This document shows, in pieces, positions 25,667 through 62,222 of a stretch of 64,000 nt of DNA. The number at the start of each line of letters is the position of its first letter. Within the stretch, counting starts at the first letter, position 1. The stretch is from a virus: positions 1-64,000 of the IMG/VR virus record IMGVR_UViG_3300032053_000038; one strand, 5' to 3'. Made by a program: the position numbers and the translations under genes. The notes below the pieces were generated by a model that made no database searches, was not told the origin of the DNA, and saw only the letters and a program-made list of their open reading frames with translations.

Positions 25667-27106
25667 TTAAACAATTACGAGAACATCTGGACGAGCATAT
25701 TCCGTTCTAGAAATTAAAATGTCTGTTACAGTTATAAATGCGGGATCTGTTGGTCTCTTTACTTCAATTAGCAATGTGGTCGTATCTACAGAGTCAACTC
25801 CAGGAGTATTTTGAATGTTAGTAATAACATCAGATCTGTCAACTTTTTCCCCAAGCAACTTACTATTTAAAAGATTACTTAAGTTAGTCGTTGCTTCTGT
25901 AACTACGTCAGCGTGAACATATCCAGCTAAGTTAGTAATAGAAGCATTAACTTTCACTAAAACTTTAACTGCTTCTCTCACTTCAACATCAGTACCTATA
26001 ATCTTAGTGTCATCAGAATCTAGAGAGGATTGTAGACTCGTCACTAAACTATTAACCTCATACAATACGCTAAAAGAACTACCTACATCAGGATAAGGAC
26101 CTCCCAAGAATCTTATCTTTGTTTTAGCATGAGTAGTCCCGCCCGTTAAAGATGTGGTATCAAAAACTACTGAATAATGAGTATCTTTAATAAATGTAAA
26201 AGCTACGCTACTCGCAACGCCTGTAATAGTATCTCCTACAGCAACAATAGGCTGCTGACTCAAAACATATTCAAGTGCATCTGCTGTAAAGGTTCTAGAT
26301 TCAGTAACTTCTTGGAGAATTTGTCCAATAATAACTACATCCGCTGCATTTCCAAATTGGTCACGTGTTAATTCAATATCACCAGGTCTTACCATTAAAG
26401 AATCAACTACTGAGGCATTCTGATTAATTAGTGATAAAATACCGTTTGCAGTTCCAATATTATTTCCTACAAGCTTAGTGTTAATACGACTTAATAAGAC
26501 TGCGTCTGTTTCAACGTCCGCACCTCCAGATGTTGAAAGAGTGTTAGTAATAAGTAAACTCCCCGACAGAGACGTAACTATAGTATCAATGGCACCCACC
26601 GCCACATTTCCAGAAGCGCCTGCTTGAGTAGCTTGAATAGGAACATTTAACTCAAAATATCCCGTAACAGGATTAAAATAAGAATCAGCATTAACCGCCA
26701 GAAAGGTACGTGTAGTAGTTGTCTGAAACGTTATAATGTCCGGAGATAAAGTAGTTGGAGAAGTACTAACTTCTGTACTAATAGGAACAGAAATATCAGA
26801 TGACGCTGTCGAAAAGGTTCGAAGACGAAATATTGCTGTACCTGATGACTGAACTCCCGGCTCGCGCGTTAGCCCTATATTATTAGCATAAGCTGTTAGT
26901 TGATCAGATGTCCAAACAGTCGCATCAGTTAAGGTTTGTTGTATTTGAACATCATTTATAGAGGTATAGGCTGTATTAAATTCGTTAGCTGGCGATTCAA
27001 TTACAACGTCTCTAGTAACAGTTCCTTCCAGCGTTGAGAGCGCAGGAATTTTTGTTGCTATAAAAGCTATAGCTGTATCTATGATCTGACCTAAAGTTCT
27101 AATCAT
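25667..27106 (-). CDS. Baseplate J / gp6-like wedge protein
   Basis: GTVTRD, IGLTR.PG, QAGASGNV..GAI, SGGADVETD..L..RI, PGVDSV. Confidence 0.88.
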   Translation of the reverse strand: MIRTLGQIIDTAIAFIATKIPALSTLEGTVTRDVVIESPANEFNTAYTSINDVQIQQTLTDATVWTSDQLTAYANNIGLTREPGVQSSGTAIFRLRTFSTASSDISVPISTEVSTSPTTLSPDIITFQTTTTRTFLAVNADSYFNPVTGYFELNVPIQATQAGASGNVAVGAIDTIVTSLSGSLLITNTLSTSGGADVETDAVLLSRINTKLVGNNIGTANGILSLINQNASVVDSLMVRPGDIELTRDQFGNAADVVIIGQILQEVTESRTFTADALEYVLSQQPIVAVGDTITGVASSVAFTFIKDTHYSVVFDTTSLTGGTTHAKTKIRFLGGPYPDVGSSFSVLYEVNSLVTSLQSSLDSDDTKIIGTDVEVREAVKVLVKVNASITNLAGYVHADVVTEATTNLSNLLNSKLLGEKVDRSDVITNIQNTPGVDSVDTTTLLIEVKRPTDPAFITVTDILISRTEYARPDVLVIV

Positions 27107-36671: not shown

Positions 36672-37262
36672 CTAAGAATTCAACGTAATTTGCTGTCTTG
36701 GTCCATAGCCGATAACAGCGTCTTCAAATACAGCTGGGTCAGACCCAGGAGTTCGTACAGCATATTCACGAGTTAAGTTTGTTAATAAACACTGCCTAAA
36801 AAAAGTTACTGTTGCAGCAACACCTGATCCCTCTGGAGCACTTTCATGTCTTATAATTATAAATGGTATCTTGATTTGTTGAGAAAGCAAACTCGCCTCA
36901 TTAATACCCGACTGCTTCATTACATCTTCATATCCTAAGATCTGAATAAGATCGCTCTTATATAGAACAGCCCTTCTTAAATTGATTCTCCGCTGTAATG
37001 GAGAACCCATAATCTCTAAAGGCTGTCCTGGAATATCAGAATCAAGCTCGTGTCTAGGTGTACCCGTTCTTTCCTGAGTATCAGTAAAACTAACAACACC
37101 ATCTAACAACTTCATTTGAGTCTGAATTGCTGAAAGAACCGTCCTCGGTTGAAAGATAGACTTAAAGAAAGTTCCCAGACTGATTGCGTCTTCCCGCAGC
37201 GTATAAAAACTAACCGATGTGGCAAGACGAATCTGTGTCTTAGGAAGATTCGGAATAGCCAT
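36672..37262 (-). CDS. Tail tube paralog
   Basis: MAIPNLPKT..RLATS and LRRAVLY..PF..FRQCLLT parallel the 36116 protein. Confidence 0.75.
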   Translation of the reverse strand: MAIPNLPKTQIRLATSVSFYTLREDAISLGTFFKSIFQPRTVLSAIQTQMKLLDGVVSFTDTQERTGTPRHELDSDIPGQPLEIMGSPLQRRINLRRAVLYKSDLIQILGYEDVMKQSGINEASLLSQQIKIPFIIIRHESAPEGSGVAATVTFFRQCLLTNLTREYAVRTPGSDPAVFEDAVIGYGPRQQITLNS

Positions 37263-39286
37263 TAAATGGTAAACTTAACGTTAATCCACCGAAGGGTTCT
37301 TACAGGCTGAATCTTAAACGATACATCGATCTGTCGGGGATCCAGCGAATTAATAGTCGAACGAATGTTACTGTAACTATTAAGAATTGTTAAAGCAACT
37401 AAGTTATCTAGAATGGTCTGAATAGTGGCTATTACTAGGTTAGGTGTATCCGGTAGTAACTTAACACCTATGAAGATGTTCTCAAGTAGTCGCCGAATTA
37501 CCTTTGCAGTAAAGTCAGTGATTTCAGTAACAGCAAATTCCTGACCATCTACTGTAGAGCGATCAGCTGTAGTATCTTCTGTAATACGGGCAATGGTATC
37601 AATAGTTTCAATTACAGTTACACCACCGTTTCTAAGTAAGAGCTTGTCTGTTCTAAGAAGACCAGTTATCACCGTCTGAAAACCAGTTACTTCCTTTCTA
37701 AGCAGCGGTTCGGCTACGTCATAGTTTGCATTAATACGAATACCAGCTACAGCAGCTGCTAGGAAGGAACCATCTAGAGCAGTTTCTGTTCCATTTAATA
37801 GCATCGTTACAGATGATGGATACACCAGCATGATTCTACGGCCATTACCACCAGAGGCTAATGCTGCCGCATAACCAGTTGCCTGAGCGACGGAAGGATT
37901 ACCCTGTAGCCCAAGAATCGATGTTCTCTCTTTCTTCTCAAGAGGCGCACTGGAATTCACTACATGAGATAGAACGAAAGAGTATAAGTTAGGATCAGCG
38001 GTTAGTGGAACCACGATGTTAACATTTTCGACAGCAGCTAGTCTGTTAAGAGCATTAATATATCCAAGAAGATCAGGCTGATCGGCCGGATTAATCTGAA
38101 CTGCTACGATTCCACCTGTATTACCACTATTCTCGAAGATAAGCTGAGAGCCTAGGGACAATGAGTTAGCAACACTCGGATCTCCATAAGTGGCCATTAA
38201 CTGATCGTGGCTGCTGAAGAACTGCGGCGCATAGTCAGCAGTTACTTTAGGAGTATTATACGTTAAGGAATAAGTAACAGCAGCTACAGGCTCTTTAGGA
38301 GATAATGCAATTAGCCCACCGAAGAAGCCTAGTAATGTGTTAGCTGAGCCATTTCCAATAGAAAGGCTTGCGTTATCAGTTTCAGTAGTTTCTACTTTAA
38401 TATACTTACTGGAAACAACAGATACAGTTACACCTAAGAAGCCAGCACTCAGGGCAACTTGAACAGCTGCAGCGTTCGCATAAACACCGCTGAGCGTAAC
38501 TGCTTGGAGTTGATCTACGTAACCACTTCCAGTAGTATCATGGACAATAATAGAGAAGACGGCTGGAGTAGCGAAAGTAATGCCACCACTAAGATCTACA
38601 CTTCCAGTAAAAGCAGCTGCGAAAGCGGGACTCCAGTCTACATCTCCACCAGCGCGTTCGGTACCAGTATTAGTGATACCTAGCTTAAGATCCCCGGCAA
38701 TATCATTTAATGTTCCAACAGTAACAACTGCGGAGCTACTAGCACCAGCTACTCCAGAAGTCAATGTATAAACTCCAGCAGCAAATACCGCTGTGAAATC
38801 GCTATAGACTAATGCATTAGCTATGCTAATGGGGGTTAACGCTCTCACAGCTACTTGAATGGCGGCGGCAATGAGTGATCCAGTTGTTAACAAAGTTGTC
38901 GTAATTGAAACAGTCTGAACCCCATCACCGTTAAGATTAATCTTAAAGGTGCCAGGAGTTGCATGAGCAGATAGATCCGCAGATGCTCCACCACCAGATA
39001 CACTTGTACCATATGATAGAATATAATCTAGGTCCCGAGTATACTGGACCATGTTAACATCCATAATATTTGCAGGCAAAGCAGTAGCCTTCGGGGTTAG
39101 AACATCATAAGAAAGAGTTCCTGATCGGGTAATGGTACTCGATTGAACTAACTTAGTTATCTCTCCCTTTCCTATAAGGCCTACTGTCCTTACACCGCCA
39201 GGAACTGAGGGAAGAGCTGTTGATGGTACGAATTGAACAACTACTCCGGACTCAGCGTTCTGCGCGCTTAATGGTGCTTCACTCAT
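37262..39286 (-). CDS. Contractile tail sheath protein
   Basis: VGLIGKG, YGDP, KKERTSILG, LAAAVAG, EPLLRKEVTGF, DPRQIDVSFKIQPV..WINVKF. Confidence 0.92.
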   Translation of the reverse strand: MSEAPLSAQNAESGVVVQFVPSTALPSVPGGVRTVGLIGKGEITKLVQSSTITRSGTLSYDVLTPKATALPANIMDVNMVQYTRDLDYILSYGTSVSGGGASADLSAHATPGTFKINLNGDGVQTVSITTTLLTTGSLIAAAIQVAVRALTPISIANALVYSDFTAVFAAGVYTLTSGVAGASSSAVVTVGTLNDIAGDLKLGITNTGTERAGGDVDWSPAFAAAFTGSVDLSGGITFATPAVFSIIVHDTTGSGYVDQLQAVTLSGVYANAAAVQVALSAGFLGVTVSVVSSKYIKVETTETDNASLSIGNGSANTLLGFFGGLIALSPKEPVAAVTYSLTYNTPKVTADYAPQFFSSHDQLMATYGDPSVANSLSLGSQLIFENSGNTGGIVAVQINPADQPDLLGYINALNRLAAVENVNIVVPLTADPNLYSFVLSHVVNSSAPLEKKERTSILGLQGNPSVAQATGYAAALASGGNGRRIMLVYPSSVTMLLNGTETALDGSFLAAAVAGIRINANYDVAEPLLRKEVTGFQTVITGLLRTDKLLLRNGGVTVIETIDTIARITEDTTADRSTVDGQEFAVTEITDFTAKVIRRLLENIFIGVKLLPDTPNLVIATIQTILDNLVALTILNSYSNIRSTINSLDPRQIDVSFKIQPVRTLRWINVKFTI

Positions 39287-54911: not shown

Positions 54912-55023
54912 TTTTTCGTTTCTCCATCTATATTAAAAGATACATATACTATTCTTTTCCGTAGTTAACTACAGAGTTCTACCCACGGATGCCAAGTATC
55001 ATGTCCGGACCCCCACGTGGAGC

Positions 55024-55140
55024 TTATACCTTCCAGAATAAGCTCCAGCCCTCTATCCGAGTATCTGGGCTAGTGATGGCCACCTTCAGCCGCATCTGCG
55101 TTCCTTCGAGCTCAGTCGTGAACGTAAACTCCCCGCAGTC
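55024..55140 (-). pseudogene. Orphan C-terminal fragment homologous to the end of the 968-aa fibre
   Basis: DCGEFTFTTELEGTQMRLKVAITSPDTRIEGWSLFWKV* vs SGTQMRYKVVLPSLTSVLDNIAMFWK*. Confidence 0.75.
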
Positions 55141-55419
55141 TCATCGCATTATCTTCTTGCACATTTCCCAGTCCGGATTGAAGTCTCTACACACTAGAGG
55201 CCTGTGCTCATAATCCTTGCAGAGCCTGGTGACAGAATCGAACATGACGCAGTCGCCATTCTCTTTTCGGTCCATCCACCACGAAAGCGGACCTTTACAG
55301 GCCCTACGAAACGAACAGAACCCGGTGAGTTGGGCGGCCTCGGCTGGAGTCAGTTTCACTTCCAGATCGGGGTCGCTCGCCAACTGGCAGCATCGCCCAC
55401 AGCCCCTGCAACCCGCCAT
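55141..55419 (-). CDS. YkgJ-family cysteine-cluster (CxxCxxCC) protein
   Basis: CRGCGRCC, GDCVMFD..LCKDYEHRPLVCRDF. Confidence 0.88.
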   Translation of the reverse strand: MAGCRGCGRCCQLASDPDLEVKLTPAEAAQLTGFCSFRRACKGPLSWWMDRKENGDCVMFDSVTRLCKDYEHRPLVCRDFNPDWEMCKKIMR

Positions 55420-58326
55420 CTACTTCCAGAACATTGCGATGTTGTCCAACACTGAGGTCAAACTTGGAAGCACGACCTTGTATCGCATCTGCGTCCCGCT
55501 CGCCTGTCCCGAGATATCGGTCAACTCGGAGTTGGGAACCTCGTAAAACGTCGCCCCGTTATCCCGGCTCGCAAACAGTTGAAGGTCTGGTGTCCCCTCC
55601 GCTACAATGAACGCCTGCGCTGGCTCGACGGATGTAGTGTGAGCCTTGGATACGACATTGGCTGGTATGGCCGCGCTTTCCAGCGATATGGTCCCGACGT
55701 TATACATCCAGAGGATTTCGGCAGGCGTTAGGACTCGGTCAAAGACCGCCACCTCGTCGAGTGTGCCCTTGGCCTGATTGGAACCGGGGTCCCATCCCAT
55801 GATGGTGCTGAGCCCTGTCGATGGGACATAGGGTGTGGTCTCCTCGAACGTCCCGATGGACAGCCCATTCACGAAAAATTCGACATAAGAGGGCACTCCG
55901 TCGGAGTAGTGCTGAACGGCAGAGACATAGTAGAAGACCCCAGCTAGGAACAAATACGGCACATACTGGTCCGCAATCGGGTTTTTCAACAGAGATATCC
56001 CGTAAGCATTTATCTTGAAGCCGAGACCCACAGCCCCATCCTCCAACGAGGTGGTGAATATCGGGATGTCGTTGAGCGTGGCACCTCCCTTCGACGTATA
56101 ACTGGTAGGTTTGACCCAGGCGCACACGCTGAACTCCTGTGTCTCGACGGATTTTAGCGTGGATCCGAGGTTGACCCAGTTGTCCTCTCCCCCAGGAAAC
56201 TCCAATGCGGTGCCCGCCAACCCGGGGACATACGGAATCGGGCTCGCCATTGAGCCGTCAAGACCGTTCCCCGAGCTATCCACAGCTGCCAGCCCCGAGC
56301 CCTCGTCGAACTTCCAGTAACCAGCCAGCCCGGACGGCTTCCCCTGGCTCACTACTAGTTTTTTCTCCCTAGAATACTGATACCCAGTAGATAGGGCGTC
56401 GTCCATATCACCCGCGTTGCTGAAAACGTCGATGAATCCTTTCTCCAACTCGTTGTTGCCGATATTCAGGAGCGTATCGACCTTGAAGTTGGTCTTGGCG
56501 AGATTGGTATTCATCTCACGGTCGAACTCTCCTCCACCAGTCGGAGCATTGACCCACTGAACCGTCCCTTCCGCATCTACAGCGGAAAGGACCTGACCCA
56601 TTGTTGGTGCTGTGACGGTAGGAATCCTAACAGCGCCACTGATGACCACTTTTCCGTCGTGGACTCCTCCACTACTGGAACCACCTTGGATTACGACATC
56701 ACCACCTATAAAGCTGACCGTAGTCTTGACATTGTGAACGAGGATGCCTGTGGCGAAGTAGGAATGTGTGTTCTTAACCTCGAAGTTGTAGGTGGGAATC
56801 TCCTCTACCACCTTCGTGGAAGAGGCTAGGGTCTCCGTCTCACCCTTGTCATTCAGTAGCTCGTCCCCAACCTTGAGGACAGCGGCTTCCTTCCACACTC
56901 CCTTGGAGTGGAAGAGGTGGTTCGGGGTTACCTTTATCTCCCGGCCCCCACTTGTCTTGAGGAGAAGGTACTCGGGCGCTAACTCCTCGGAAGTGGTGTG
57001 GTGCTTGAGGGCCGTGACCTCCGAGGCCCGCAAGGTCTTGGTGCGATTATCATACGACTTCACCACATCGCCGACCTTGATGTCCTCAATTCCCTTGAAG
57101 GTTCCATCCGCCATGGAGATTGGAGTACCGGCAGCGAAGCAGTAGTTGTGAACTAGAACACCAGCGAAATAGGCCTCCGTTCCCTTTACCTCGAAGCTGA
57201 AGGTGGAGATAGGAGACTTGATGAGCACGGACGCCGATACTGACTCCGAGGTTCCTGCCGGAGTGAGCAAAGCATCTCCCACGGATAGGGAGTGTGCTTC
57301 CTTCCACGCACCGTTGACATAAAACAGATGTTCCGGAGTCACCTTCAGTTCGTTACCGGCGCTTGTCCTTAGTGAGATGTACTCCAGGGCGTTGTACTGG
57401 AATGTTCGTGTCACTTCAGAGTTGGTGTAGAGTCCGGTCACCACATCGAAGGACTTGATGAAATCCCCAGCCTTAACCTCCTCGATGGGCTTAGTTGAAC
57501 CATCGGCCATGGAGACTGGGGTTCCGGCGGCGAAACAGTGAAGTGTGTAGTCGGCATCACCACCCACAAGTCGCAGCGTTCCTCCAGTGTATACCGCACT
57601 GATACTTTGCGGCTGTGCCCCCTTGATGTGTCCACCAGATATCGTGTTCTGCCCACCAGTTGCGGTCACTGTCCCCGCATCAAGACCAAGCGGACGAATC
57701 TGGATGGCACCGCCGGGATTCAGCGAGTCGATGAAGGTTGTTCCAGGAGATAGAAGGTCGTTGTAGACATTGGAGATTCCATCTCCACCCACTCCGACTT
57801 CCACCAAGTAATCCCTCACGGAGTTGTCAATCATCTCCGCCGTGACCTGTGTTGCGCCTGACGGGACAGTCACCTCGGCAACGAGGATCGCACCGGAGTC
57901 CGTCACTGGAGCCTGTGCTTCCACCGTCAAGTCTCCCCTGTCAAAGTCCTTCCTCTCAAAACCGTCGGACCCGACTATGTGCTTCGGGCGAAGGACAATG
58001 TACTGCTTCCCAACCGCGACGGTCAGGTCAGCGAGTCTGTTCGGCTCGAACTGCTCCTTGTTCTTATCACTGAGGACAGTGCCATCAATCATGGCAACGT
58101 AGTCCCTGACGCGAATCTGTAGTCCGGTACCCGGAATCGTTTCACCGTTAAGATCCTTGATGTTGCGAACGACACCACCTACGACCATTGTCCCCTTGAT
58201 GGGGAAAAAACCGTCACCCAACTGATTAAGTGCGAGTTGAAGCGAATCTGCTAGCTTAAAGTGGTCCGGAACGGTAACCACCTTAGCGGAACATGAAGTA
58301 ATAGGAATTTGAATTTTTTCTGCCAT
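55420..58326 (-). CDS. Fibre/adhesin with two tandem Hint domains and a LamG-like domain
   Basis: CFAAGT..VTPEH..LVHN-Y-CFAAGT..VTPNH..LVHN; GYWKFDEGSG..FSVCAWVKP..GTLDEVAVFDRVLT. Confidence 0.88.
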   Translation of the reverse strand: MAEKIQIPITSCSAKVVTVPDHFKLADSLQLALNQLGDGFFPIKGTMVVGGVVRNIKDLNGETIPGTGLQIRVRDYVAMIDGTVLSDKNKEQFEPNRLADLTVAVGKQYIVLRPKHIVGSDGFERKDFDRGDLTVEAQAPVTDSGAILVAEVTVPSGATQVTAEMIDNSVRDYLVEVGVGGDGISNVYNDLLSPGTTFIDSLNPGGAIQIRPLGLDAGTVTATGGQNTISGGHIKGAQPQSISAVYTGGTLRLVGGDADYTLHCFAAGTPVSMADGSTKPIEEVKAGDFIKSFDVVTGLYTNSEVTRTFQYNALEYISLRTSAGNELKVTPEHLFYVNGAWKEAHSLSVGDALLTPAGTSESVSASVLIKSPISTFSFEVKGTEAYFAGVLVHNYCFAAGTPISMADGTFKGIEDIKVGDVVKSYDNRTKTLRASEVTALKHHTTSEELAPEYLLLKTSGGREIKVTPNHLFHSKGVWKEAAVLKVGDELLNDKGETETLASSTKVVEEIPTYNFEVKNTHSYFATGILVHNVKTTVSFIGGDVVIQGGSSSGGVHDGKVVISGAVRIPTVTAPTMGQVLSAVDAEGTVQWVNAPTGGGEFDREMNTNLAKTNFKVDTLLNIGNNELEKGFIDVFSNAGDMDDALSTGYQYSREKKLVVSQGKPSGLAGYWKFDEGSGLAAVDSSGNGLDGSMASPIPYVPGLAGTALEFPGGEDNWVNLGSTLKSVETQEFSVCAWVKPTSYTSKGGATLNDIPIFTTSLEDGAVGLGFKINAYGISLLKNPIADQYVPYLFLAGVFYYVSAVQHYSDGVPSYVEFFVNGLSIGTFEETTPYVPSTGLSTIMGWDPGSNQAKGTLDEVAVFDRVLTPAEILWMYNVGTISLESAAIPANVVSKAHTTSVEPAQAFIVAEGTPDLQLFASRDNGATFYEVPNSELTDISGQASGTQMRYKVVLPSLTSVLDNIAMFWK
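56731..57537 (-). other. Tandem Hint (BIL/pretoxin-type) domains, 131 aa + Y + 137 aa
   Basis: Both have C1, TxxH and terminal HN; +1 residues are Y and V; no endonuclease. Confidence 0.9.
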
Positions 58327-58336
58327 TATTTTTACC

Positions 58337-58939
58337 TTAGGATAGATTTACGGTAGCCGTATCAGAATGATCTAGCGACGTATTCCCGTTCTGAAGCCCT
58401 AGAAGAACGCTTCCTGCACCAGAAGCAGAAATGGTAGCTGACGCCATACCATGCGACACTGTTAGAAGGACTGGACCAACAACTCCGTTAATCTTCGGAG
58501 AAGCAGCTGTACCACCAGTAATTGCTAGCTCTATGGTAGCAGTATTATTAAATGGATCGAGCACACCAACGCCGTTTGTTACACCGACATTAACTAATGT
58601 ACCTGCATGAGGTCCAGAATAAGTATTATCTGAGCTAGGACCATTTACAGAGAAAAACTGAATAATCATATCACCTGATTGTACCCAAGTTTCAAGAGCT
58701 TCTTGAGAACTGGCTGCACTTAATTCTACGGAAGAATTAACTGTTAATAGGCCGGAATCTCTAAGATGCTTTAAATGAAAAGACTTTGCAAGAACTTCTT
58801 CGGGAGCGTAATCGAGAAGTTCTACGGCAACACCAGGCGTTAGCTGAATGGGTTTTCCTGCAAAATCCACGATGTCGCGTAGATAAACAGGATGAGCCAC
58901 TGATGCGGATAATGTTACATTGTGTGGAACTAAAGACAT
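58337..58939 (-). CDS. Capsid-associated protein: anchor + Ig-like domain
   Basis: VYLRDI..G..I.L.PG..LAKSFHL; beta-rich C-terminus. Confidence 0.7.
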   Translation of the reverse strand: MSLVPHNVTLSASVAHPVYLRDIVDFAGKPIQLTPGVAVELLDYAPEEVLAKSFHLKHLRDSGLLTVNSSVELSAASSQEALETWVQSGDMIIQFFSVNGPSSDNTYSGPHAGTLVNVGVTNGVGVLDPFNNTATIELAITGGTAASPKINGVVGPVLLTVSHGMASATISASGAGSVLLGLQNGNTSLDHSDTATVNLS

Positions 58940-58993: not shown

Positions 58994-60964
58994 TTATGCA
59001 AACTTAACACGGGTTACTGTAACAGGAAAACCCCCGTCAAAAATTACAAGATTATTTCCAGATATGCTATAGAAGGGAGCTACCCCACCAGTGAGCGCAA
59101 CTCTCCACACGAAATCCGTAACACTTGCGTAATACAGTTGACTCGTGGCACCACTCATCGAGAATTGAAACACCCTACCATTACCCGCAGCTAACATAGC
59201 CATACCAGAAGCACACTGTATCTGTATCGAAGAAGACGAAAGGTCGAAGGGAACAACATAGATAGATGGGCTTGAACTCGCTTTCAAGAAATATTGAGAA
59301 GAGACTTCATCAAACCGGATTGGAGAGGATACATCTGCATCTATTCCACCCGCGAAAGTATAGATAAGTGCACCTGCTTCATCCACAACGGTAAAGGCGT
59401 ATGGAGATGAGCCATCTGTACGTAATACCGCAACCGTCGACTTTCCCGCAACTTCTGATCCAAACGCTAGATAGGGTGCGCTTGTTACAGTCCCTAACTT
59501 CACATAAGAACCCGCCACAAAGTCTGTAGGCGAGTTTGGATCAATTGCCCCATAGAATGAGTCTGTGCCACCATTTAATGTTCCCGATATCCAGATGAGA
59601 CCTCGAGTATCAATGTGACGCACTATCCTCTGAAAATCTATATTATCCAACGTATCTGTTCCGAATGATGTAAATGTGGCTACGTCAAATAACGCGGCCG
59701 TACTCATCACCCCAGTTGTCATGTTGATGTCGTGGAACGCTGTACCCACAACTCCAAATAAAGCGGGTACTCCTGCCAACCTACCTGTAGCAAGACCACC
59801 AGATATCACAGTAATGGAAGAATGCGTAATCGGAGTTATCTCATCCAAAGTTTCTGCATTTCGGATGGATGCTATTGAACCATCTGCATTGGGTACAGAA
59901 TATACGACAACTACTGCATCTACAGCAAGGCCAAACTCTAAGTCTGGTAAAGCAATTCCAAGTAGACTAATCATCGCGGGCGTATTAGACAGAGATGATA
60001 CTCCCATCATTTTATAAATCACATCAGGAACTGTGGACGCTTGCCACGAAGCTACTCCACCTGCATCACTACTAGTAAGAACTTTGCCAGGACCCGCTGT
60101 ACCATCAGAAATTGCGATAGTCCCGTTGAGTAAGATTTTACCATTTATTCCACCGCCAGCGCCAGTTCCAGGACTTAGACTAATTTGACCTCCGCTTCCA
60201 CTGGTGCTTGCACTACCTGCAGTCAAATTGATCGGTCCACCACCGCCCATAGCGCCGACTTCATCACCGGCTGTTATTTCAATAGGCCCCCCACCAGAAG
60301 TGTCACTTGTGTCTCCTGCGTTAAGGTAAATATAGCCACCGGGACCTGTGCTTGCTGCTACGCCCGCATCAACTATAAAAGAACCCCCACGACCGGCCGT
60401 AGAAAAAGGAGTAATTTTAACACCCACATTAAGTCCAGTGATTGCATCCAGGATGCTTGAATCAACAATTCCTGTTCCGGTATTATCGAACTTGACGGCT
60501 TTGTTCGGAGTGCCGCTATAAGAAACTCCGAGAGGAAGACCTACTGTACCATTTCCATCTAAGGTTGTATCTGTAGTTACAAAGGCTAACCCGCCACTTC
60601 CGGGTGTTTGCCAATCAGCTGCAGCTGATCCTGAGGCAGTTAAAACCTGTCCATGAATTGGGGGAACTGAGCCACTTGTACTTATAGGCCCTGAAGTAGA
60701 TTGTAAAGCACCCTCTGAAGCTATCTCTAAAGCATCTACAGAAAGAGCATCGAGATCGAAAGTGTCTACCACATATATATGACCTAGAGCTACCAGTCGA
60801 GCTAAGTGATTAGACTTGGCAATATCCTCTCCAGAAGCATTCGCAGATAGATCAAAGGAGGTCCCTGGATGTAAAATTATTAGTGATCCATCATAATTAA
60901 GTAAGTCATTAATGATGACGTTACCTGTGACAAGATTTGTGACTGTTTTTGGAAGAAGCCTCAT
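58994..60964 (-). CDS. Head fibre/adhesin: anchor + GGxIxIxAG repeats + propeller-like tip
   Basis: IINDL..G..I.L.PG..IAKSNHL; TLDGNGT, GKVLTS..G..SW. Confidence 0.72.
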   Translation of the reverse strand: MRLLPKTVTNLVTGNVIINDLLNYDGSLIILHPGTSFDLSANASGEDIAKSNHLARLVALGHIYVVDTFDLDALSVDALEIASEGALQSTSGPISTSGSVPPIHGQVLTASGSAAADWQTPGSGGLAFVTTDTTLDGNGTVGLPLGVSYSGTPNKAVKFDNTGTGIVDSSILDAITGLNVGVKITPFSTAGRGGSFIVDAGVAASTGPGGYIYLNAGDTSDTSGGGPIEITAGDEVGAMGGGGPINLTAGSASTSGSGGQISLSPGTGAGGGINGKILLNGTIAISDGTAGPGKVLTSSDAGGVASWQASTVPDVIYKMMGVSSLSNTPAMISLLGIALPDLEFGLAVDAVVVVYSVPNADGSIASIRNAETLDEITPITHSSITVISGGLATGRLAGVPALFGVVGTAFHDINMTTGVMSTAALFDVATFTSFGTDTLDNIDFQRIVRHIDTRGLIWISGTLNGGTDSFYGAIDPNSPTDFVAGSYVKLGTVTSAPYLAFGSEVAGKSTVAVLRTDGSSPYAFTVVDEAGALIYTFAGGIDADVSSPIRFDEVSSQYFLKASSSPSIYVVPFDLSSSSIQIQCASGMAMLAAGNGRVFQFSMSGATSQLYYASVTDFVWRVALTGGVAPFYSISGNNLVIFDGGFPVTVTRVKFA

Positions 60965-61253: not shown

Positions 61254-62222
61254 TTAGAGGTCAATGCGTACGATTCCCTTGGCGTATCGGATAACGAACC
61301 CGATATCTTCCCAAATAGCAAATACATCAGCAAATTTATTGGAATCCTTTAGGGTCTCTACGGAAACGTCTGTACGAACAGCTAGTACACCAAGGTAATC
61401 AGCCGGAGCTAGTACGTATACCATGTTGTCGGGGACGATAATGTCCTCTAGTACCTCTACGCCCCAAATGCTTCCAACGCGGCCAGCCTTAAGAGCCTGA
61501 TCCTGGAAGTTAGGTGCGAAGATACCTGCACCGCCGTTCATGCCAACGACGCTATTAAACAGCATTAGGTCGCGACCACGAACTGGGTTCATGAAGACCT
61601 TATTTGCGACAAGTAGCTTAGAACGAAGAGCTACGATACCCTCTACGAGAGACTCCATTGAAACCTTTGTAAGACCTACGGATGTGGTTACAACGGTAGG
61701 GTTAGCACTTGTTGCATCCGAGCCAGCGAGAGAAACAACTTCAGGCTGGTTAGTTAGATTAGACGCATACTCGAGGAGTGCGTATCCACGGCCATCTTCC
61801 TGGAACTGAATGGAAGCCTTACCGCGCTCTTGCGCACGATTGAGAATGTCAAACTTACGGAAGTTTGACTCGTTCCAACGTACCATAGGACGAACGGTAA
61901 TTGGAGACGTCTCACAACGAATACGATCGGATCTAACTTCTAGCTGCTCTGGAAGACCCTCGATAGAGATTCGAGCTGCGGGAACGTCAAGGTCCGCATC
62001 GAAGACTGCCTCTTCACCTAGGGCTAACTTATAAGTCTGATAGATCTGACGAATTCGACCTTCGAATAATAGATCGCGCTTTAGCGGCGATAACATCTGC
62101 TGTGCGATCTTCTGAAGCCCACCAGGAGAATTCATCAGCCTGGAAAGCCTTTCCTCTACCTGTGAACTGGTGAGGTTAATACCATAGACCTGCTCATCCG
62201 CAGGAGTGTTTTTCTGTTCCAT
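61254..62222 (-). CDS. Major capsid protein (HK97 fold)
   Basis: IAQQMLSPLKRDL, FDILNRAQ..I..QED, GSIWGVEV..IVP..VYVLA, WEDIGF; strong codon bias; follows scaffold and decoration genes. Confidence 0.88.
   Translation of the reverse strand: MEQKNTPADEQVYGINLTSSQVEERLSRLMNSPGGLQKIAQQMLSPLKRDLLFEGRIRQIYQTYKLALGEEAVFDADLDVPAARISIEGLPEQLEVRSDRIRCETSPITVRPMVRWNESNFRKFDILNRAQERGKASIQFQEDGRGYALLEYASNLTNQPEVVSLAGSDATSANPTVVTTSVGLTKVSMESLVEGIVALRSKLLVANKVFMNPVRGRDLMLFNSVVGMNGGAGIFAPNFQDQALKAGRVGSIWGVEVLEDIIVPDNMVYVLAPADYLGVLAVRTDVSVETLKDSNKFADVFAIWEDIGFVIRYAKGIVRIDL

Follow-up and report, generated by a model that had tools for sequence, protein, structure and literature searches.

Work on Hint domains of the BIL type covers only a few proteins of bacteria and ciliates, and the natural purpose of these domains is debated. 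To our knowledge, engineered constructs are the only setting in which a BIL domain has been shown to ligate with no nucleophilic side chain. PT-HINT domains are defined by their position right before a C-terminal toxin domain, which they are thought to release, and inteins are common in phages. According to passages of PMC7664689 (citing Amitai 2003 and Aranko 2013), BIL domains without a nucleophile at the +1 site, although they give mainly cleaved products in vitro, can still ligate, and a part of PMC8616854 (section 2.4, citing Chiarini 2021) describes the BIL2 domain of Tetrahymena as joining its N-flank to a lysine side chain as an isopeptide and as able to pass the N-flank to other proteins. 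We analyzed a pair of such domains in a stretch of viral DNA of 64,000 nucleotides (hereafter the window; positions 1 to 64,000 of IMG/VR record IMGVR_UViG_3300032053_000038), in which the minus strand from 55420 to 58326 is one open frame for a fibre-like virion protein of 968 amino acids (aa; P0001) with two internal Hint domains, Hint1 and Hint2. Both are intact, endonuclease-free domains of the type-A BIL/PT-HINT class. From their sequences we consider the chances evenly balanced that the duplicated Hints would remove themselves and, in most cases, re-join the fibre by the nucleophile-free BIL route.

Two intact Hint domains one residue apart

Read in reverse complement, 56731–57537 translates as CFAAGTPVS...VLVHN, Y, CFAAGTPIS...ILVHN, preceded in the 968-aa protein by ...GGTLRLVGGDADYTLH and followed by VKTTVSFIGGDVVIQGG.... 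Hint1 covers aa 264–394 (131 aa; 57145–57537) and Hint2 covers aa 396–532 (137 aa; 56731–57141); Tyr395 (57142–57144), the sole residue between them, is at once the +1 residue of Hint1 and the −1 residue of Hint2. These features, and all other parts of the protein given below, lie on the minus strand. A profile search against Hint, PT-HINT and intein families, suggested with the original prediction, was run: PT-HINT (PF07591) matched the 968-aa protein in two stretches (E = 8.9e-29, 100.9 bits; curated cut-off 27.7 bits), and on the genome each copy was matched alone (Hint2: 57.5 bits; Hint1: 53.8 bits). Because these scores greatly exceed the cut-off, singly and together, the Hint identity is far beyond chance. 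Hint, Intein_splicing and other Hint families of Pfam also match the protein, as do TIGR01445 and TIGR01443 of NCBIfam (intein N- and C-terminal splicing regions, respectively). Translation and Pfam thus agree with the prediction of two Hints one tyrosine apart.

The nearest solved relatives by sequence are the BIL domain of C. thermocellum (2LWY; E = 2.4e-11) and the Tetrahymena BIL2 chains 6TMM and 6Y75. AlphaFold2 (AF2) modelled the Hint pair with a mean predicted local distance difference test (pLDDT) score of 92.9 (Hint1: >90). Foldseek ranked BIL2 (6Y75 and 6TMM; top match E = 9.4e-11) and 2LWY on top for the model of the mid-segment (aa 177–640), with target template modelling (TM) scores of 0.78–0.89, and mini-inteins and Hedgehog domains came lower (target TM = 0.75–0.89 over the BIL, intein and Hedgehog set). 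Pfam, solved-structure matches by sequence and Foldseek all point to the BIL/pretoxin-type identity that had been proposed.

The active-site residues point the same way. Both copies combine a predicted Hint fold with an N-terminal Cys and the block B Thr-x-x-His of the HINT superfamily, and the Cys1, block B Thr and His, and terminal His-Asn that are near-invariant in an alignment of 244 full-length related Hints are present in both (Hint1: Cys264, Thr330/His333 and His393-Asn394; Hint2: Cys396, Thr467/His470, Asn514, His521 and His531-Asn532). Hint2 agrees with the family consensus at every conserved column. Neither copy contains an endonuclease insert at its length of 131 or 137 aa, and neither is followed by Cys, Ser or Thr at +1, the residues there being Tyr395 and Val533. 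The two Hints therefore have the features of type-A BIL and PT-HINT domains and lack the +1 nucleophile of a class 1 intein. The residue table accordingly confirms what had been read from the sequence on all of these counts, namely C1, TxxH and HN in both copies, no endonuclease and no +1 nucleophile.

Compared with described systems, the pair is closest to the type-A BIL of C. thermocellum (2LWY; target TM = 0.89), which is alike in length (~135 aa), in Cys1, TxxH and terminal His-Asn, in having neither an endonuclease nor a +1 nucleophile, and in its occurrence in variable surface or extracellular proteins; unlike it, the present copies lie one residue apart in a putative phage virion protein, flanked on either side by large structural parts, and their processing is predicted. 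In BUBL1 of Tetrahymena thermophila, the BIL2 domain likewise works beside other BILs in one polyprotein, and its lysine acceptor, as described in part of PMC8616854, parallels a lysine preference among the relatives of the present Hints (see below). However, the BILs of BUBL1 flank ubiquitin-like cargo, whereas here one Tyr stands between the Hints and the outer flanks are fibre parts, and the two differ as ciliate and phage proteins with only 22–28% identity. The PT-HINT domains of polymorphic toxins (Rhs and similar) form the best Pfam family, and distant matches include RHS-repeat polymorphic toxin-type HINT proteins, but Pfam found no toxin family downstream of the present Hints, where instead a Gly-Gly module is followed by a LamG domain and then by a fibre end that is conserved, so that the pretoxin position is absent. 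Class 1 mini-inteins (Ssp and Npu DnaB, Mtu RecA) share the fold (target TM = 0.75–0.85), blocks A, B and G, and an in-frame insertion between flanks that are colinear with an uninterrupted relative; in contrast, the present Hints have no +1 Cys, Ser or Thr, no conserved essential-enzyme site and no homing trace, and are duplicated in place. Finally, the Hint arrays of metagenomic and IMG/VR phage proteins are of the same Hint class and have sister copies with linkers of 1–6 residues, including single residues, but most end the protein (His-Asn, Lys, stop) or use Lys-Gly(n) linkers, whereas the present pair is internal, precedes a 436-aa C-terminal part that is probably functional, and has Tyr and Val, not Lys, at its junctions.

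The host protein and its Hint-less ortholog

The window is part of a 77.8-kb record with an estimated completeness of 37%, and carries myovirus genes for a major head protein (61254–62222), a tail sheath (37262–39286) and a baseplate wedge (25667–27106). The 968-aa gene sits among fibre-like genes between the major head protein and the tail sheath. Its N-terminal conserved domain (aa 1–176; 57799–58326), the presumed virion anchor, is common to six metagenomic proteins of 538–738 aa (P0003–P0008; 45–60% identity), whose distal parts differ and all of which lack aa 177 to ~600. Structure-atlas matches of the anchor domain to tail-fibre N-termini are leads only. Because of the gene position and the conserved N-terminus with variable distal parts, it is plausible that the protein is a virion fibre, be it a head fibre, a whisker or a tail fibre; a receptor-binding role is an assumption.

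Behind the anchor lies a module of ~420 aa (~aa 177–599) that consists of Gly-Gly strand repeats, the two Hints, one further repeat and a GQVLS...W motif. It is followed by a LamG-type Laminin_G_3 domain (aa 713–871; 55714–56190; Pfam E = 2.4e-16), in keeping with the LamG tip recognized previously, and by a C-terminal domain (aa 872–968; 55423–55713) ending in ...VLDNIAMFWK, which is strongly conserved in P0003, P0004 and an ortholog in locus L004.

L004 is one of 60 related phage loci that we fetched through the head protein, its own head protein being 85% identical to that of the window phage. Its ortholog of 579 aa is flanked on both sides by the same genes as the 968-aa gene, and consists of the anchor (53% identical), a short linker, the LamG domain and the same conserved C-terminal end. 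The whole ~420-aa module is absent from it, not the Hints alone. Since L004 joins anchor and tip directly, the module appears to have been added in the window phage, at the hinge that links the anchor to the LamG tip, and since the Hint-less ortholog has anchor and tip in one chain, the two fibre halves would need to stay together. No match to the 968-aa gene was found among GenBank phages by blastn, and scanning IMG/VR with a pattern of the whole protein turned up nothing but a distant LamG relative.

The insertion site in the Gly-Gly module

The N-part of the Gly-Gly module (aa 177–263; 57538–57798) ends with ...GGTLRLVGGDADYTLH, and the C-part (aa 533–599; 56530–56730) reads VKTTVSFIGGDVVIQGG...GKVVISG...GQVLSAVDAEGTVQW, with Lys534 at the +2 site of Hint2. 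We compared both with an uninterrupted, Hint-less Gly-Gly module (~aa 190–310; 60035–60397, minus strand) in the neighbouring 656-aa gene at 58994–60964. The N-flank (aa 201–258) is colinear with aa 205–252 of the neighbour (E = 4e-4), and the C-flank (aa 541 onward) with its aa 258–345 (E = 7e-9). Because the flanks align to adjoining parts of the uninterrupted module, the Hints seem to occupy a short loop that connects two units of the repeat. The fibre repeat had been predicted to be continuous once both Hints are removed, and the colinearity supports this indirectly, the paralogous module being too diverged from the interrupted one for a residue-by-residue empty site.

A search with aa 177–640 in 1.84 billion representative proteins returned 17,766 matches. 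Five proteins among the best matches (P0079, P0080, P0084, P0109 and P0116) carry a single Hint at the equivalent module site, i.e., after a strand ending in Gly-Gly or Ala-Gly plus 3–5 residues, and downstream of it have one or two Gly-Gly repeats and then a G-N-V-I-L strand. Farther downstream, P0079 ends with a Peptidase_S74 chaperone and P0109 with a phage depolymerase C-domain. The shared site suggests that this fibre module repeatedly hosts a Hint at one specific position, and the layout of P0079, P0109 and the others shows that the window phage is not alone in having internal Hints followed by long structural parts. The single-Hint fibres and the Hint-less neighbour module supply part of the series of homologs with zero, one or two Hints that had been suggested as a check. 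The C-flank alone (aa 533–640) found only the protein itself in a set of 5.8 billion proteins.

Origin of the pair

Hint1 and Hint2 are 54% identical in amino acids and 57% in DNA, with indels, and differ by 0.43 nonsynonymous substitutions per site (dN) and 3.3 synonymous ones (dS, saturated). They are sisters in the tree of the 244 Hints (support 0.90), with the Hint of P0088 as nearest outgroup. Hint2 is ~50% identical to the single Hints of the fibre proteins P0080 and P0079, and Hint1 is ≤47% identical to anything but Hint2. Judged from these comparisons, the pair is an old tandem duplication in place, and the simplest history is that the duplicated unit was one Hint with its −1 residue, which would have left the lone Tyr. 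Because synonymous sites are saturated while dN is 0.43 and the catalytic residues are kept, we take it to be an old duplicate under purifying selection. Conserved catalytic residues and purifying selection together make Hint activity plausible.

The same observations bear on the idea that the Hints are catalytically silent knobs that stay as protruding domains of the mature fibre. The insertion topology would permit this, the two ends of a Hint lying close together, and AF2 folds both copies compactly. However, retention of catalytic residues through saturating divergence, and in >95% of the 244 relatives, is unexpected for a purely structural role, and we regard silent knobs as quite improbable.

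The guanine plus cytosine (GC) content of the Hints (0.53–0.56) equals that of the remaining fibre gene, the whole gene being at ~0.55 against ~0.38 for the rest of the window; the Hints were therefore not acquired separately from the fibre gene. This also argues against two invasions of the fibre gene by selfish mini-inteins, which would be in line with the matches to the intein N- and C-terminal splicing models and with the presence of a large intein in another gene of L004. The two copies are mutual sisters, which indicates duplication and not two invasions. They lack a +1 Cys, Ser or Thr and an endonuclease, and they occupy a variable module rather than a conserved enzyme site. Moreover, tblastn of the mid-segment against 50,697 GenBank phage records returned 12 records with only ~31–33% identity, mostly in genes annotated as helicase or P-loop NTPase and some in genes annotated as hypothetical protein, with none in an annotated fibre gene and no comparable Hint at E ≤ 1e-8. 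A selfish origin is thus very improbable.

An assembly artefact that duplicated one Hint has the least to recommend it. It is true that only the contig of the probable source run, a sediment metagenome, spans the whole stretch including the Tyr junction. But two other, independent sediment runs contain 99+% identical fragments within each Hint (none bridging the Tyr junction), and the copies, at 57% DNA and 54% protein identity with indels, keep an intact frame. The original expectation that diverged copies make an artefact unlikely is borne out, and we consider its probability negligible.

Tandem Hints and lysine usage among relatives

At least two Hint matches occur in 122 of the 150 best representatives from the search of 1.84 billion proteins. 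The linker between adjacent full copies is usually 2–6 residues long, mostly Lys-Gly, Lys-Gly-Gly or Lys-Gly-Gly-Gly, and one-residue linkers (T, R, K and F) are found as well. Back-to-back Hints with linkers of 1–6 residues being common, there is nothing unusual about a spacing of a single Tyr. In the tree of 244 Hints, copies from the same protein frequently group as sisters, which suggests that duplication in place happened many times. In IMG/VR, at least 313 loci encode relatives of these Hints, many of them proteins of ~740–925 aa that end in 2–4 Hints with 1–3-residue linkers, then Lys and stop; the Hint part of these arrays matches phrog_21587 and their N-terminal 300–460 aa have no Pfam match. 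Our literature search found no description of tandem Hints or BILs, or of Hints in phage fibres or virions.

For 363 related Hints with a terminal His-Asn, we counted the residues that come next. Lys takes the +1 place in 56% of them and is found among the first three residues in 71% (Lys background 5%), and a Cys, Ser or Thr at +1 is seen in only 9%. Hint2, with Lys534 at +2, has this feature. This strong preference for Lys right after His-Asn indicates amine chemistry, and so points away from the earlier suggestion that a lone Tyr is delivered to another molecule.

Predicted processing and its alternatives

The following steps would all be post-translational. Each Hint would shift the bond preceding it (His263-Cys264 for Hint1 and Tyr395-Cys396 for Hint2) onto its Cys1 as a thioester, and would cut behind itself by cyclization of its last Asn (Asn394 and Asn532), so that both Hints would leave the 968-aa protein. 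Amines at the C-junctions, i.e., the α-amines of Tyr395 and Val533 or the side chain of Lys534, would then attack the thioesters. The main product would be a re-joined fibre of 700 aa with either a His263-Tyr395-Val533 junction or a Lys534 branch, and plain cleavage products would form beside the ligated fibre in an undefined share. We favour re-joining because anchor and tip are needed together and because the flanks form one module; that it is the main outcome may be held with a confidence just short of even. The original prediction had offered tip shedding, double splicing and thioester transfer. These remain live alternatives, among which sequence analysis cannot choose, as ligation, plain cleavage and Lys-directed acyl transfer are not separable by computation.

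Several observations weigh against self-removal with re-joining. BIL domains, in the passages of PMC7664689 cited above, give mainly cleaved products in vitro. Relatives that are terminal caps (Hint, Lys, stop) can only cleave or transfer, not splice. Two block F positions of Hint1 are off the family consensus, Ser377 standing where 85% of relatives have Asn and Glu384 where 69% have His, and Hint1 is followed by Tyr-Cys-Phe with no Lys near its C-junction. In the AF2 model, both flanks of the mid-segment have pLDDT <50, so that the model, with its flanks unmodelled, is silent on flank pairing, and the placement of the two Hints relative to each other is uncertain (predicted TM score 0.62). 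The protein-set searches returned no close homolog that combines these flanks with a single Hint or none and could thus display an empty site at residue level, and the literature search found no experimental work on phage-fibre Hints.

Because two block F positions depart from the family, the C-terminal step of Hint1 could be weak, in which case the pair may be excised as a unit through its outermost junctions at Cys264 and Asn532. This is a lead from sequence, and it is opposed by the fact that nearly all related copies keep both catalytic ends (C1 in 240/244, His-Asn in 234/244). We also considered and rejected a division of labour in which the upstream Hint performs the N-terminal and the downstream Hint the C-terminal chemistry: neither copy has lost any core residue, C1 and His-Asn nearly always occur together in the relatives, and the block F changes of Hint1 are a weak lead only.

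If water were the acceptor, thioester hydrolysis and Asn cyclization would leave the anchor half (aa 1–263) and the LamG half (aa 533–968) unjoined, either held together noncovalently in a trimeric strand-repeat stalk or with the tip shed. The in vitro behaviour of BIL domains, which, in the part of PMC7664689 referred to above, yield mainly N- and C-cleaved products, argues for cleavage only, as do the absence of a +1 nucleophile and the many phage relatives that are terminal caps able only to cleave. On the other hand, anchor and tip belong to a single chain in the Hint-less ortholog and homologs, so that separating them would seem self-defeating, and the Lys enrichment after His-Asn would have no explanation. 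Cleavage without re-joining is thus unlikely, while being the strongest competitor of the re-joined fibre.

Alternatively, the Hints would be, by analogy with BUBL, an ATP-free thioester conjugation device of the virion, in which Hint1 would activate His263 and Hint2 Tyr395, to give an isopeptide-branched or cross-linked fibre. The acceptor would be Lys534, a Lys on a capsid protein or on an adjacent fibre chain, or a host-surface amine. Tetrahymena BIL2, the closest solved structure, conjugates its N-flank to lysines (as described in part of PMC8616854); Lys is frequent at +1 to +3 in relatives and present at +2 of Hint2; and in the IMG/VR loci L095 and L102, a Hint stands at the ...GAG or ...GSG end of an N-domain resembling tail assembly protein I, followed by Lys. 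However, the cargo between the two Hints would be a single Tyr, Hint1 has no Lys nearby, no particular acceptor can be named and the case is made entirely by analogy. We therefore hold a conjugation device to be improbable, more so than plain cleavage.

Other Hint-bearing proteins and neighbouring genes

Among the relatives, the ~740–925-aa array proteins come from loci L064–L092 and others. In seven of these loci (L065, L074–L076, L079, L083 and L087), the last Hint of the array ends in Asp-Glu instead of His-Asn, and it could therefore cut only at its front. A distinct metagenomic family (P0013, P0023, P0034, P0035, P0036, P0056, P0070, P0097, P0101, P0119, P0121 and P0150) begins with a signal-peptide-like segment ending in ...ARGGGG, followed by 3–5 back-to-back Hints joined by Lys-Gly(1–6) and by Lys-Gly(n) or Gly-rich sequence; a hydrophobic segment comes next in many members, and P0013 and P0035 have a Tim44-like domain. 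If all Hints left such a protein, its ends would be linked by little beyond a Lys/Gly peptide. In L126, L134, L140, L142 and L143, proteins of ~1820 aa contain a Hint at ~aa 28–157, with ...(G)SKGG before it and KGGGK... after it.

Single Hints also occur in proteins that resemble tail components. P0088 and P0118 have one in their C-terminal part and N-termini resembling phage tape-measure proteins, and P0261, a further relative, carries PF10145, a phage minor-tail family. In L095:3707–4846 (P0267) and in L102, the Hint lies inside a protein resembling tail assembly protein I (phrog_32, phrog_4946). The Hint of P0267 directly follows an N-terminal domain ending in ...VLQGAG and directly precedes Lys and a hydrophobic stretch, a layout that recalls BUBL; tail assembly protein I of the lambda type has a ubiquitin-like N-domain.

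In the window, a GC-rich island (54950–58250; 0.51–0.59 against ~0.38 elsewhere) takes in the whole fibre gene and, directly downstream of it, a 92-aa CxxCxxCC (YkgJ-like) gene (55141–55419, minus strand; PF03692, E = 4.6e-11). We rejected the latter as a dedicated partner of the Hint-bearing fibre, as no homolog was found in 141 other phage loci, including 80 Hint-bearing ones and L004. The two genes upstream of the fibre gene (58337–58939 and 58994–60964) share an N-terminal domain of ~80 aa that recurs in L004:12678–12926 and L004:13566–13814, which suggests a common attachment domain of several appendage proteins. The large intein of L004 mentioned above is found upstream of the head protein, in a 1417-aa protein (L004:5122–9375), at ~aa 137–538; it looks classical (Hom_end_hint and Intein_splicing) and is unrelated to the fibre Hints.

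Implications for phage fibres and the BIL family

The 968-aa protein presents a known class of domain, BIL/PT-HINT, as an internal duplicated pair in what is plausibly a phage fibre, and it is apparently part of a widespread and undescribed use of this class in virion proteins. The class is widespread in uncultured-phage proteins, including fibre-like proteins, a protein resembling tail assembly protein I and two resembling tape-measure proteins. From this wide spread in uncultured phages, together with the lack of a comparable match among GenBank phages, the Hints would represent a common but unstudied step of virion maturation. If the conjugation reading were true, the common Lys after His-Asn and the Lys-Gly(n)-linked Hint arrays in other phage proteins and in secreted ones would be signatures of the same chemistry, and the phages would have a counterpart, across phages, of the ciliate BUBL system.

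The locus offers a natural test case, in that two active-looking Hints lie one residue apart, the two halves they separate form a single chain in a related phage, and a Hint-less module is located next door. It bears on whether such Hints carry out nucleophile-free double splicing with a middle extein of one residue, break the fibre in a controlled way, or cross-link it through lysine. No new principle is involved, yet nature here poses the choice between nucleophile-free splicing, cleavage and lysine transfer in a form well suited to a test.

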